Assembly: GCA_020053595.1 (NCBI GenBank)
Contig: JAGVMV010000024.1
Location: 29,707 to 93,706, forward strand
Reading direction: 5' to 3'
Length of the DNA: 64,000 nt
From: Thermoleophilia bacterium
Lineage (GTDB): Bacteria > Actinomycetota > Thermoleophilia > BMS3ABIN01
Made by a program: the position numbers and the translations under genes. This document shows positions 30,268 to 33,785 of the stretch, in pieces; position 1 is the first letter of the stretch; every line of letters begins with the position of its first letter. The notes beneath the pieces were generated by a model. That model did not search any database and was not told the DNA's origin. It was given only the letters and a program-made list of their open reading frames with translations.

Positions 30268-30327
30268 GCCTAACAAATCAATCAACACGGACGCGCTTAC
30301 GCGCGCCGGTTATTTCAAACGGTAGCC
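30268..30327 (+). other. Degenerate 60-bp attC-like recombination site (R'' GCCTAAC ... R' GGTAGCC)
   Basis: The 60-bp architecture strongly resembles short attC sites: GCCTAAC, spacer, GC-rich central palindrome CGCGCTTACGCGCG, spacer, core. The terminal core deviates from GTTRRRY (GGT instead of GTT). It lies 8 bp upstream of the DUF433 gene start. Confidence 0.4.
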
Positions 30328-30334
30328 CCTCGCC

Positions 30335-30595
30335 ATGGCAAGCACCACGGTGTATTATCTAACCGTCATGGATTGGAAAGAACATATCACAATCGACCCG
30401 GCTATTTGCCATGGAAAGGCATGTATCAAGGGTACTCGGATTCCCGTGTCCGTCGTGTTGGATAACCTGGCAGCCAACATCAATCCCGAAGAGATCCTAT
30501 GGGCTTATCCCTCCTTGACGCTCGAAGCTATAATGGCTGCCCTCGCCTACGCCGCTGATCTTGCCGGAGAGCGCGTACTTCCGCTATCCGCATAG
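30335..30595 (+). CDS. DUF433 domain protein (antitoxin-like)
   Basis: [51 protein letters not shown] matches DUF433. Confidence 0.75.
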
Positions 30596-30603
30596 GGCTG
30601 GCG

Positions 30604-30657
30604 GATGCGGTTCAAGATCGACGAGAACCTTCCCGAAGACGTGGCATCGGTCCAATA
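30604..30657 (+). pseudogene. Truncated DUF5615 (PIN-like, partner of DUF433) gene remnant
   Basis: MRFKIDENLPEDVASVQ-stop. Only the first 17 codons of the usual ~110-aa DUF5615 toxin remain. Confidence 0.5.
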
Positions 30658-30659
30658 GA

Positions 30660-30749
30660 GCTGCGCCCGATGAAATAAAAAAGCTTGTCGAACTGGGTGT
30701 TATAAAGCAAAAGGGGAGTGGACGGAGTACCCAATACGAACTGGCGTAG
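30660..30749 (+). pseudogene. C-terminal fragment of a RecG-like/AAA-HTH (AlbA_2/HATPase_c_4 family) protein
   Basis: ...PDEIKKLVELGVIKQKGSGRSTQYELA-stop resembles the conserved C-terminal wHTH tail of that family. No N-terminal part is present. Confidence 0.35.
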
Positions 30750-30773
30750 CCGTTCACGATTAAGTTCACGAAT

Positions 30774-31048
30774 AGGTTCACGAATAATGACTCCGGACTC
30801 ACCAAACGCGCCAGTTGTCACACTTTCCGCCACTCATTTGCCACGCATCTGCTCGAAAACGGCTACGACATCCGCACCATCCAGGAACTGCTGGGACACA
30901 AGGACATAAAATTACCATGATTTATACCCATGTACTCAATCAGGGTGGGCAAGGCGTCCAGAGTCCAATTGACAAGTTGCCTCGGCGATGGACGATTAAC
31001 CGGATCAATCTAAACCGCCAGCTTAGAACCTGTTCTTCCTGCAATTGT
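30774..31048 (+). pseudogene. intI: Integron-type tyrosine recombinase (IntI/XerD-like) gene: C-terminal ~55-codon fragment, frameshifted
   Basis: ...[36 protein letters not shown], then a frameshift, then [22 protein letters not shown] in the other frame. This is the hallmark C-terminal catalytic region with the Tyr box of integron integrases. No N-terminal 300 codons are present. Confidence 0.7.
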
Positions 31049-31130
31049 TGGAATATTGTGTGAAGGGATAGGGGTTTATACTGCAGAATATTCAGTGTTG
31101 GGGGTTGTTATATGGATACGTATAAACACT

Positions 31131-31137
31131 GTTAGGC
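31131..31137 (+). other. GTTAGGC core recombination site (R'-type) forming the 5' boundary of the exonuclease cassette
   Basis: Exact GTTRRRY consensus, preceded by a 7-bp stem CAGTGTT/AACACTG. It lies 32 bp upstream of the cassette ORF. Confidence 0.5.
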
Positions 31138-31168
31138 ACTTTGTCAGACCAGCTTCCGAGGTAGAGCA

Positions 31169-32440
31169 ATGTCACGGTCCCTGATCGCAGGTCCCATAGG
31201 CGTGATCGACGTGGAGACGACGGGGTTGTTCCCGTCCCGGCATGATCGCGTGGTAGAGGTGGCTGCCGTTGTTGTGGGAGCTGACGGGCGCATTGAACGC
31301 GAGTTCGTATCGCTGGTGAACCCAGCTCGGGACATCGGGCCGAGCAGCATCCACGGTTTGACCTCGGAAGATATTCTCCACGCGCCGCAGTTTGCAGAGA
31401 TCGCAGCACTACTATTGGACGTGCTGAGTGGCACGGTGGCGATAGCCGCTCACAACGTTCGATTCGACCGCCAGTTCTTGGAGAGCGAATTCTCACGGCT
31501 GGAGTGCCAGTTACCGGACTGTTTCAGCATTTGCACAATGCAGCTGGCGGGGGGCGGGAGACTAGCGGACTGTTGTCGTGACTATGGAATCTCACCAGAA
31601 GGCGATGCTCATCACGCCCTCGCCGATACTCATGCCGCTGCTCTGCTACTGACCTGCCTTCTCGCCGACCAGCCTCGCACGGTTCAGAAGCTCAGCAAAC
31701 TTGCGCCGGTTCAGTGGCCGACCGTTCCCCGCACGATGAAGCAACCCGTCACGCGCGATGAGTCACGCCGTCGCCAAACTGAACCGCCCACATTCTTGCA
31801 GTATCTTCTCGAACGAATGCATGGTCACGGATTTCCGGACGCCACCGACGGGGCGGTTATGGCTTACGTGGCGTTGCTTGATCGCTTCCTGGAAGATCGT
31901 CATGTGGACGACTCTGAAGCCGATGCACTCGTGGAAACGGCTACAAAATGGGGCCTGAGCGGGGACCAGATATCCCTTGCCCACCGTGACTATCTGAATC
32001 AATTGGCAATTGCTGCAGTAGCCGACGGAATCGTCACGGACGCGGAACGACGGGACCTGAAGCTTGTCGCGCACCTGCTGGGCCAGGAGAAACGCGACTT
32101 GGACGAGATACTCAGTGAAGCTGCTGCGAAGGTGTGCGAGACACATCCCGATCCGGCCACGGCCAAACCCGCCGAGGAGAGCCTGATCGGGATGCGCGTT
32201 TGTTTCACAGGGGAGCTACAGTGCCATCATGACGGAGAGATGATTTCGCGCGAGTTGGCCGAAGAGCTCGCCAGTAGAGCCGGGCTTGTTGTGGCGGACT
32301 CTGTCACCAAGAAGCTCGATCTTCTTGTATTGGCCGACCCGCACACACAGTCTGGAAAGGCCAAAAAGGCCCGGCAGTATGGCATTCGGATCATGCACGA
32401 GCCCGTGTTCTGGAAGGCTATCGGCGTGAATGTGGAATGA
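31169..32440 (+). CDS. Cassette-encoded DEDDh 3'-5' exonuclease (DnaQ-like) fused to a TerB-like helical domain and a C-terminal BRCT domain
   Basis: Exo I IDVETTG, Exo II AHNVRFDRQFL, Exo III HHALADTHAAAL. The central helical region is TerB-like by composition. C-terminal GMRVCFTGEL...LLVLADP...SGKAKKARQYGIRIM is BRCT-like. Confidence 0.8.
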   Translation: MSRSLIAGPIGVIDVETTGLFPSRHDRVVEVAAVVVGADGRIEREFVSLVNPARDIGPSSIHGLTSEDILHAPQFAEIAALLLDVLSGTVAIAAHNVRFDRQFLESEFSRLECQLPDCFSICTMQLAGGGRLADCCRDYGISPEGDAHHALADTHAAALLLTCLLADQPRTVQKLSKLAPVQWPTVPRTMKQPVTRDESRRRQTEPPTFLQYLLERMHGHGFPDATDGAVMAYVALLDRFLEDRHVDDSEADALVETATKWGLSGDQISLAHRDYLNQLAIAAVADGIVTDAERRDLKLVAHLLGQEKRDLDEILSEAAAKVCETHPDPATAKPAEESLIGMRVCFTGELQCHHDGEMISRELAEELASRAGLVVADSVTKKLDLLVLADPHTQSGKAKKARQYGIRIMHEPVFWKAIGVNVE

Positions 32441-32472
32441 GCGAGAATCATGCCGCAGGGTGATGTCGCCGT

Positions 32473-32570
32473 GCCTAACAAAACGCTCACCTGCCGCGGC
32501 CCGCATTGCGTTCCTCGGGGTTCGACACCCCCTTGCACCGGGCCGCGGCAGGTGAGCGCCAACGTTAGGC
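32473..32570 (+). other. attC recombination site (98 bp): R'' GCCTAAC, imperfect inverted repeats L''/L', R' GTTAGGC
   Basis: GCCTAAC-AAAACGCTCACCTGCCGCGGCCCG ... CGGGCCGCGGCAGGTGAGCGCCAAC-GTTAGGC. One extrahelical base asymmetry between the arms. Located 33 bp after the cassette ORF stop. Confidence 0.7.
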
Positions 32571-32650
32571 AGTAGGCCCAGTGGTTTTATGGAGCCGAGG
32601 ATTTGGTTGGGGGTTGTTGTGGGTTTAAGTTGCAAAAACGGGAGGTCATC

Positions 32651-33647
32651 GATGAAGAAAAAATTCCTATCGATCGGACAGATCCTAGCCCTGGGTGCGT
32701 TTCTGATCGTCTATATCGGGGTAGTGGCTGGGTGTGGCGGAACTACCGAGGAAAGCGGAGGATCGGCTTCTCGAAGCGACGAGGCCACGCTGGTCGCCAT
32801 GACGGAATCCGGCAGCCATCAGAATCCCGCCTGGTCCCCCGACGGTTCGGCACTCCTCTTCACCCGTTGGCGAAGCGGTTACAATACGGGTGCAGCCGAC
32901 CTCTTCGTCGTTACCCTCGCCGATCTCGCCCTCAGGACGCTCGTCTCGGACGGAAGCGCCAACGTGAATCTTCCGGGATCGGCATCGACCTGGAACGGAA
33001 CGACCGACGAAATCGTTTTCACCTCCTCGCGTGACCCCCACGACGAGGCCTACGTGATCGGTGAAAACGGCGCCAGAGGTTCGGCGACGCAGGTGACATC
33101 TCGTCCCAACCACGTAGTCTTCGAAGCGTCCCTTTCCCCGGACGCTCAATCGATCGTCTTCGAATCGCATCAGGTCGACGTGGAGGACAACGGCGTCATC
33201 TTCCGTTACAAAAGAGACGGGAGCGAGGGCTATGTGCCCTTGACGCCCGCCGGCATGGACTGCCGTCAACCGGTCTGGTCCCCCACCAGAGATAAGATCG
33301 TTTGCCAGTGCAAGGTAGGCGGTCAATTCGCGGTCTTTGTGATGAAGACCGACGGGGCCACCCTGACACAAGTCACGGGCGGAGCAGGTGAGATGACGGA
33401 CCCATCTTTCTCCCCTGACGGCTTGATGGTCGTCTACAGCTCGAACGAAGGAGGACTTGCTCAGGCCAATCTTTTTGTCGTTCCCGTGACAGGTGGACAC
33501 TCGACACGGGTAACCAACTATTCCGGCTACGATGGCGCACCCTCATGGTCTCCGGATGGAACGAAGATCGCTTTCGAGTCCTCACCGAGTGATCCCGACG
33601 GGTCCGCGGGGACTAAGCTTTACATCATCGCCGCACTGTCTCCCTAG
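32651..33647 (+). CDS. TolB-like WD40/PD40 beta-propeller lipoprotein (cassette 2). The ATG at 32651 follows a GGGAGG RBS.
   Basis: Signal peptide with lipobox VVAG-C. Repeated ...PAWSPDGS..., ...SLSPDAQSIVF..., ...PSFSPDGLMVVY..., ...APSWSPDGTKIAF... PD40 repeats. Confidence 0.7.
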
Positions 33648-33785
33648 ACGAGCCCCATGGCCGGCCACGACCGTATAAAGTCCCCGTGCAGACAAAGGGG
33701 TCAGCGCTTTACTTTATATTTATTGCCAGTAGTGTCCGGTTAGGGAACGGTGTCAGACTTGCCTAAGTTGTCCAACAATGCACTG

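Follow-up and report, generated by a model that had tools for sequence, protein, structure and literature searches.

Does the DNA in front of trpS in a Thermoleophilia bacterium (assembly GCA_020053595.1, contig JAGVMV010000024.1) hold the remains of an integron, and are its gene cassettes still mobile? We analysed a stretch of 64 kb of this contig, here called the window, whose positions refer to the + strand unless stated otherwise; L-numbers are labels of the related contigs and loci that were compared with it. The island in question is bounded by the end of a zincin-like gene at 27288 and by the start of trpS at 33894, and has a G+C content of 0.49-0.59 against ~0.60-0.64 in the flanking housekeeping genes. 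Along the + strand follow a stub of an integron integrase gene (intI), an attI region, cassette 1, cassette 2 and trpS; besides the two cassettes there is one orphan attC site, which stands together with a DUF433 gene upstream of the stub amid gene debris. We read this region, with a probability of roughly nine in ten, as a decayed (degenerate) sedentary chromosomal integron whose intI was transcribed toward attI, with the cassettes on the same strand. An initial annotation of the sequence had proposed a decayed integron with an IntI-type pseudogene, GTTAGGC cores, a real attC and at least two cassettes, and every test that we ran bore this out.

Judged by its profile scores, the recombinase fragment is a member of the IntI family and not a XerC or XerD. 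Translations, the profile TIGR02249 and tblastn delimit a stub at 30792..30999 (+), which holds the last ~60 codons of the gene (residues ~261-320 of a 320-aa IntI) with two frameshifts, placed by comparison with related contigs near 30908 and near 30981, and the ancestral stop codon TAA at 30997-30999. Frames 3 and 2 read together give the repaired C-terminal peptide, which over profile positions 252-315 of 315 matches NCBIfam TIGR02249 (integron integrase) with 119.7 bits, short of the 265 that this profile sets as its cutoff, and XerD and XerC with 81.1 and 79.7 bits, ~39 bits lower. The Xer matches end at fragment residue 54, before the GG.GV.SP.D tail, and the IntI match continues to the end of the profile; the stub is also 89.8% identical to the annotated integron integrase on a Kovacikia plasmid. 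A frameshifted, IntI-like C-terminal fragment had been recognised before, with the advice to compare its affinity to IntI and to XerC/XerD, and the profile scores place it closer to IntI. Its extent has to be corrected: the IntI homology does not fill 30774-31048 but spans only ~30792-30999, the reading up to 31048 being a product of the second frameshift, and not ~300 N-terminal codons but ~260 of ~320 are missing. With three full-length IntI proteins as tblastn queries, only residues ~261-319 were matched across the 64 kb, and no other piece of intI was found there. Three tandem units of 12 nt (GTTCACGAttaa, GTTCACGAATAG and GTTCACGAATAA; 30752..30787, +, by direct reading) abut the 5' truncation point, and in the alignment with the relatives IntI homology begins just past them. 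These units, each consisting of GTTCACGA and 4 nt, may be filler made at the deletion junction.

Sites of the attC type were sought with a covariance model of our own, R1, which was aligned and built with R''/R' and L''/L' pairs on the basis of 20 genuine sites, of which 17 belong to class 1 arrays of clinical plasmids (aadA1, aadA2, aadA5, blaOXA-1, blaVIM-2, blaIMP-10, dfrA12, dfrA14, dfrA17, catB3, arr-3, cmlA5, estX, psp, qacL, aac(6')-Ib and aac(6')-Il) and three to the metagenomic array L087. With filters off, R1 recognised exactly three sites in the window with significance, each of them on the + strand; the best of the remaining candidates scored 9.6 bits, and default filters returned the same three: the orphan attC at 30268-30327 (39.1 bits, E 4e-6), a terminal attC at 33770-33855 (33.9 bits, E 5e-5) and the attC of cassette 1 at 32473-32570 (30.3 bits, E 3e-4), for which a covariance model search had been suggested. 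R1 found no match at E<=10 in 1.27 Mb of unrelated bacterial DNA (80 trpS neighbourhoods), and 72 sites, as a positive control, in arrays adjoining intI homologues in metagenomic loci. A strict attC pattern of our own, combined with a fold scan, had retrieved only the 98-bp site and missed the real sites with imperfect R boxes, and was replaced by the covariance model; a scan of the window with Rfam gave no attC match at the gathering threshold. The cores tell the same: GTTAGGC/GCCTAAC occurs four times in the 64 kb, a number equal to the chance expectation for the window, and all four copies lie within 30268-32570 in the orientations that attC and attI require, for which four out of four inside 2.3 kb we estimate a chance of ~2e-4.

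The three attC sites are 60, 98 and 86 bp long (the published range is 57-141 bp; PMC5371416), have spacers of 5 and 6 nt and start 0-122 nt after a stop codon. The orphan site (30268..30327, 60 bp, +) reads R'' GCCTAAC, AAATC, L'' AAT-C-AAC-A-CGG-A-CGCG with extra bases, L' CGCGCCGGTTATT, TCAAAC and R' GGTAGCC, in which the conserved GTT is broken to GGT; in folding, the window copy showed no paired R box. It had been described as a short attC with a mutated R', and it is the element with the highest R1 score in the window. The site of cassette 1 (32473..32570, 98 bp, +) consists of GCCTAAC-AAAA-20 bp perfect stem-35 nt loop-stem-CCAAC-GTTAGGC and folds with -43 kcal/mol (z = -7.95). Formerly called a textbook attC, it is a real attC with intact R'' GCCTAAC and R' GTTAGGC, but its perfect stem without extrahelical bases is not that of a textbook site; such bases give attC sites their strand selectivity (PMC5371416). 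The terminal site (33770..33855, 86 bp, +), which closes the lipoprotein cassette and was missed by the initial annotation, reads R'' GTCCAAC, AATGC, L'' ACT-G-GAGCCG-A-CCG, L' CGGCGGCTCAGT, TTTTTC and R' ATTAGAT; both extrahelical bases are present, and an A has taken the place of the G in the conserved GTT. This terminal attC also contains a hairpin that resembles a terminator and has a run of T (noted in 33818-33893).

A sister strain permits a closer view of these lesions. L183, an independent assembly with a contig of 47 kb, is ~99% identical over most of the shared stretch (~96% downstream of 30125) and reproduces the integron structure with the same intI stub, which is identical in both. 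Between 30560 and 34000 the window and L183 differ at only seven positions, and two of these seven are single-base insertions in L183, a G after 32487 and an A after 32493 (L183 9820-9919), both at the exact canonical extrahelical positions of the 98-bp attC, which scores 46.9 bits with R1 in L183 compared to 30.3 in the window. The 60-bp attC has a G at 30322 where L183 has a T (L183 7669), giving R' GGTAGCC versus GTTAGCC and 39.1 versus 49.1 bits. The terminal attC is identical in L183, with R' ATTAGAT in both strains. As read from the sequence, each attC of the window has lost one feature required for recombination, by GGT, by ATT or by loss of the extrahelical bases. Since L183, although ~99% identical, lacks two of the three lesions, that part of the decay appears to be recent and ongoing. 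The joint loss of both bulged bases suggests a single hairpin-templated (quasipalindrome) correction, which, if true, would be a possible general route to the fixation of cassettes; alternatively, the loss of the bulges at 32487/32493 may be an assembly artefact. That two strains differ exactly at the positions on which attC recombination depends, the GTT of one site and both extrahelical bases of another, offers a close view of the decay of an integron. Two further observations concern the upstream part: L183 has two deletions at window 29702-29801 and 29942-30124, which remove parts of HicA/HicB and the region upstream, and in the segment 30125-30560 (an open reading frame (ORF) fragment, the 60-bp attC and DUF433) the strains have diverged several times as much as over the rest of the island.

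The attI region (31000..31137, +) is a non-coding spacer of 137 bp ending in GTTAGGC at 31131-31137, with the crossover point between G31131 and T31132, and the evidence for it is comparative. Five short metagenomic contigs (L001-L005) carry the 3' end of intI, free of the frameshifts of the window, and the ~137-bp spacer at 82-85% identity. In L001 and L002 homology with the window (~85% identity) runs to the end of the GTTAGGC at 31137 and then stops, and L002 goes on to an unrelated ORF. Divergence of the spacer is about half of that seen at third codon positions in the adjoining stub, namely 14.6% versus 31% between window and L001, and 18.8% versus 42% between L001 and L004. On this comparison, spacer and core would behave as an attI, and their layout, ...GTTATATGG...TATAAACACT|GTTAGGC, resembles that of attI1, ...GTTATGGAG...CCCTAAAACAAA|GTTAG... 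The GTTAGGC at 31131-31137 had been proposed as a recombination site, and it holds as one: relatives diverge right after it, and elsewhere homology with cassette 1 starts there. R1 found no attC ending at 31137, the attI end GGATACGTATAAACACTGTTAGGC had no exact counterpart among genome contigs or metagenome contigs, and the spacer DNA showed no similarity to 80 metagenomic intI loci beyond the coding stub. The Kovacikia IntI, the closest full-length one in the plasmid collection, was tried as a guide to attI and rejected: its layout is divergent, and there is no similarity to the attI of the window. The 13-mer GTTGGGGGTTGTT occurs exactly twice in the 64 kb. One copy (31097-31109) lies in the attI spacer, 21 nt ahead of the core; the other (32606-32618) belongs to the leader of the lipoprotein gene and follows the core of the 98-bp attC at a distance of 36 nt. 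When the local alignment was submitted to a shuffle test, the outcome was 15/2000.

Cassette 1 (31132..32564, 1433 bp, +) contains an ORF at 31169-32440 (423 aa) and ends with the attC at 32473-32570. Its protein joins a DEDDh exonuclease to a BRCT domain at the C terminus, with a TerB-like region in the middle (Pfam RNase_T and BRCT), and matches the PADLOC profile PDC-S48 with E 2.3e-120 (residues 12-419 on profile positions 8-406 of 411), which makes the gene a candidate phage-defence gene PDC-S48 with a predicted function; we found no publication on PDC-S48. The homologues of this protein, with 70-93% identity, lie on contigs labelled Alpha- and Betaproteobacteria, Chloroflexota, Planctomycetota and Acidobacteriota, in contrast to the organism's own TrpS, for which there is no relative above 61% identity. 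In L086, L184 and L185 homology with the window starts at 31130/31131 (GTTAGGC), amounts to 94% identity over 31130-32459 and ends with the 3' arm and R' of the attC (...GGCAGGTGAGCGttAACGTTAGGCAG), and the unit sits between unrelated genes (Volactin, Amidase_2). In L087 the exonuclease gene stands in an array between canonical attC sites. The cassette of 1433 bp had been delimited before by its attC, and these boundaries recur in L086, L184 and L185. Judged by such boundaries and by its distribution, the DEDDh-exonuclease/BRCT gene is a bona fide integron cassette, and a widely travelled one; this spread across phyla makes it a good candidate for the testing of defence genes.

The copies in other genomes show fates of their own. 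In L086 (4439-4480; likewise in L184 and L185), compared with window 32449-32570, the 5' half of the attC (R'' and L'') has been lost and only L'-spacer-GTTAGGC is left, a deletion that apparently joins the similar strings GCCGCAGGGTGA and GCGGCAGGTGAG. The proteobacterial-looking contigs L088-L090 (~10001-11350 in L088) carry an 82%-identical exonuclease/BRCT copy between ligA and housekeeping genes, followed by a decayed attC-like sequence and a 187-aa ORF; by its surroundings, this copy looks like a fossilised cassette in a core-genome position.

Cassette 2 (32565..33849, 1285 bp, +) holds an ORF at 32652-33647 for a PD40/TolB-like beta-propeller lipoprotein (Pfam PD40, E 1.7e-27; a signal peptide and a Cys are visible in the translation). 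A second lipoprotein cassette downstream of the 98-bp attC had been suspected, and the attC at 33770-33855 closes it. In the homologue search the one near-identical protein came from the same organism and the next best had 68% identity, with no sign of wide dissemination, unlike cassette 1. The array ends 38 nt before the start codon of trpS, and in L001 the homology of the native trpS upstream region begins at 33847. At this distance, transcription of the essential trpS would have to start in what little of its upstream region was retained, or come through the array.

Established integron biology would account for these junctions. At attI, a complete IntI would once have taken in promoterless cassettes in circular form, by recombination of their attC sites, folded from the bottom strand, with attI between G and TT; this mechanism is taken from the integron literature (PMC5371416). 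The junctions at the locus match the prediction of a G|TT crossover, and the crossover points coincide with the limits of homology, as relatives keep the intI 3' end and attI and then continue with another gene. Because the 64 kb hold no integrase, the array is frozen in cis. In comparison with a complete integron, the locus lacks an intact intI but has, on comparative evidence, an attI with a GTTRRRY core, and an attC-ended cassette in array orientation. By definition, a CALIN element has two or more attC sites at distances below 4 kb and no integron integrase recognised in their vicinity (PMC4889954); with attC sites spaced 2.1 and 1.2 kb and no integrase passing the profile cutoff, the locus would probably be called a CALIN by IntegronFinder, one of three attC sites and with an intI pseudogene next to it. 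No tRNA was found in a scan of the window, and the island is accordingly no tRNA-linked one.

The position of the cassettes 3' of intI on the same strand had been taken as a sign of rearrangement. We do not share this view: in integrons of the Treponema denticola type intI is transcribed toward attI in the same-strand layout (PMC3607928), which is also known as that of the 'inverted integrase group' (PMC3575428). It is, moreover, the commoner arrangement among the closest relatives of the stub. When the 80 closest metagenomic loci were scanned with R1, 29 proved informative, with attC sites only downstream on the same strand in 20, only upstream on the opposite strand in eight, and both in one; several of the same-strand loci likewise have a truncated or frameshifted intI. 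The order intI-attI-cassettes on one strand is common in environmental integrons, and orientation alone is no evidence of rearrangement. Another layout is found on the Kovacikia minuta plasmid pB (NZ_CP083584.1; L091 768-6028), where five R1 sites lie upstream of the annotated integron integrase on the opposite strand: this is a classical divergent integron, with cassettes that are not annotated as such.

A comparison with an intact integron at the same site had been recommended. A synteny search via TrpS in 185,579 species genomes had a best match of 61% identity and yielded no close relative, so that no intact integron is available for comparison at this site, and an exact look-up of the window's TrpS found no record. 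The close metagenomic relatives carry a truncated intI. The truncation points of the stub in four lineages, at IntI residues ~261 (window 30790), ~241 (L001 1172), ~248 (L003 887) and ~234 (L004 368), fall within 27 codons, and the upstream DNA is different in each. An open frame of 80-106 codons is kept in three of the four, and the divergence between stubs is strongly biased to third codon positions (e.g. 2:2:21 and 7:1:29); some stubs have non-conservative changes in conserved motifs. The simplest reading of this pattern would be a recent and independent truncation of a gene that was functional during most of the divergence. The clustered truncation points, the open frames in three of four lineages, the third-position bias and the slowly evolving attI spacer could instead be taken to mean that the intI 3' stub and attI are retained by selection rather than as mere debris, a reading to which we give little credence and against which the non-conservative changes in some stubs speak. 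If it were true, a C-terminal IntI mini-protein, or the DNA encoding it, could modulate a trans-acting integrase or carry promoter or accessory sites for attI. An excess of short IntI fragments among the top protein matches was also considered, and discarded as a signal: by our own estimate it is due mostly to short metagenomic contigs and to the small length-dependent score term of HMMER.

Several points weigh against the reading as a decayed integron, or limit it. R1 has 20 training sites and was calibrated in a shortened way, which makes its E-values rough, and one of its training sites, L087b, belongs to a homologue of cassette 1. The evidence for attI comes from short contigs, with only 14 nt past the core in L001 and 80 nt in L002, and a promoter scan of the intI 3' end and attI region found no sigma-70-like site. 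The IntI-specific additional domain disappeared with the deleted part of the gene, a part that is missing in the window and in all close relatives found. The simple model foresees no cassettes upstream of intI and so leaves the orphan attC and the DUF433 gene there without explanation, and the scope is 64 kb, while the remainder of the genome might encode an IntI.

This last point leads to the possibility that the array is no fossil but a working satellite array, serviced in trans by an intact IntI encoded elsewhere. About half of the CALIN elements are found in genomes that encode an IntI elsewhere (PMC4889954), and the attI spacer is conserved above the third-position rate across lineages that all have a truncated intI. 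Two of the three attC sites look functional in L183, and the first cassette of the window differs from that of L001 and L002 although intI is truncated in all of them. However, the different first cassettes may predate the independent truncations, as the third-position bias suggests, every attC of the window is lesioned in a required feature, and the window is without an integrase. We consider a trans-serviced array unlikely and prefer the frozen, decaying integron.

That the cassettes were inserted at a secondary site upstream of trpS, and that the stub is unrelated debris which happens to adjoin them, is very improbable. The insertion of cassettes by IntI outside att sites is described (bioRxiv 10.1101/2022.09.11.507474), and in L086 and L184 the same exonuclease cassette occurs without a nearby integrase. 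Against this, five independent contigs have conserved the intI 3' end, the 137-bp spacer and GTTAGGC as one co-linear block, variable DNA sets in exactly at the core, and intI-attI-cassettes is the layout of intact relatives, as in the 20 loci with downstream attC sites on the same strand. The idea that there is no integron at all, but a Xer-like or phage-type recombinase fragment beside ordinary palindromes such as terminators or REP-like elements, for which the perfect hairpin of the 98-bp element without the bulged bases typical of attC and the terminator-like hairpin with a T run in the terminal element might speak, is refuted by the lead of the IntI profile over XerC/XerD together with the IntI-type C-terminal extension, by R1 matches to all three elements and to nothing else in the window or the controls, by the canonical bulged bases in L183 and by cassette boundaries that recur in other genomes.

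The decayed integron is preceded by a series of genes and gene fragments. A short ORF fragment (30151..30273, +, 40 codons) has its stop codon TAA inside the R'' box of the orphan attC; no Pfam match was found for it even at E<=10, and we take its CxxCNxGKG ending to be HNH endonuclease-like, an unconfirmed assignment. The antitoxin-like DUF433 gene (30335..30595, +; Pfam PF04255, E 1.3e-25) starts 8 nt after the orphan attC and is followed by a 17-codon stub (30604-30657), presumably, though unconfirmed, the start of a DUF5615/PIN-like toxin, and by other gene debris to 30750; an ORF at 30561-30749 has weak winged helix-turn-helix-like matches only. Further upstream, Pfam identifies as context a FitA-like/VapC-PIN module (28035-28764, +), a two-gene MNT-like module (28835-29538, +) and HicB/HicA (29634-30031, -). 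These toxin-antitoxin genes had been counted with the cassette content as typical of sedentary integron arrays, but R1 with filters off found no attC in this stretch (28035..30031), and they are not demonstrably cassettes.

The toxin-antitoxin-like modules are rearranged between relatives. In L003 a FitA-PIN module is fused to the stub, the stop codon of PIN joining directly to IntI residue ~248, and in L001 the MNT module stands between two pieces of a trpS 5' fragment, after which intI follows from residue ~241. This two-gene module (74 aa and a 166-aa nucleotidyltransferase-like protein; compared over window 28779-29531) is 95% identical to that of L001, compared to 75-85% in neighbouring shared DNA, and its second gene is shortened in the window (166 versus 188 codons). 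By its looks, it is of toxin-antitoxin type and has been exchanged on its own. L001 113-243 and 1087-1139 correspond to window 33847-34042, that is, to the trpS promoter and first ~50 codons, here upstream of the intI stub and split by the MNT-like module. It seems from this that in L001 the trpS 5' end was either duplicated or displaced to the opposite side of the island; the window is without such a copy. Far from the integron, a cobalamin riboswitch (Rfam RF00174, 55.8 bits) at 5928-6104 (+) is the sole Rfam match in the window.

Among known systems, the locus is most readily compared with integrons of the Treponema denticola type, with which it shares the order of intI, attI and cassettes on one strand; it differs in that its intI is reduced to the last ~60 codons with frameshifts, in having two cassettes only, and in the damage to all of its attC sites. 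With CALIN elements accompanied by an intI pseudogene it has in common three attC sites in 3.6 kb, the absence of a functional integrase and an IntI C-terminal pseudogene alongside. Such pseudogenes were found near 15 of 279 CALIN elements (Cury et al. 2016, IntegronFinder; PMC4889954), but the stub of the window covers only ~20% of the IntI profile, below the 50%-coverage rule of these authors, whose screen might have missed it. With class 1 attC sites (aadA1, blaOXA-1, cmlA5 and others) the window sites share the order of blocks, R'' (RYYYAAC), 5 nt, L'', loop, L', 5-7 nt and R' (GTTRRRY), as well as the extra bases of L'' after positions 3 and 9, and the 60-bp site closely resembles the arms of the blaOXA-1 attC; unlike the class 1 sites, they have GGT or ATT in place of GTT, or no extrahelical bases. 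Integron cassettes with phage-defence genes have been described (bioRxiv 10.1101/2024.07.02.601719), and the protein of cassette 1 matches PDC-S48 of PADLOC end to end, PDC-S48 itself being only a candidate. As an integron remnant the locus is ordinary, since the loss of integrases and orphan clusters of attC sites are well documented; what gives it value is that it shows attC decay at the level of strains and carries an exonuclease/BRCT cassette that has crossed phyla.

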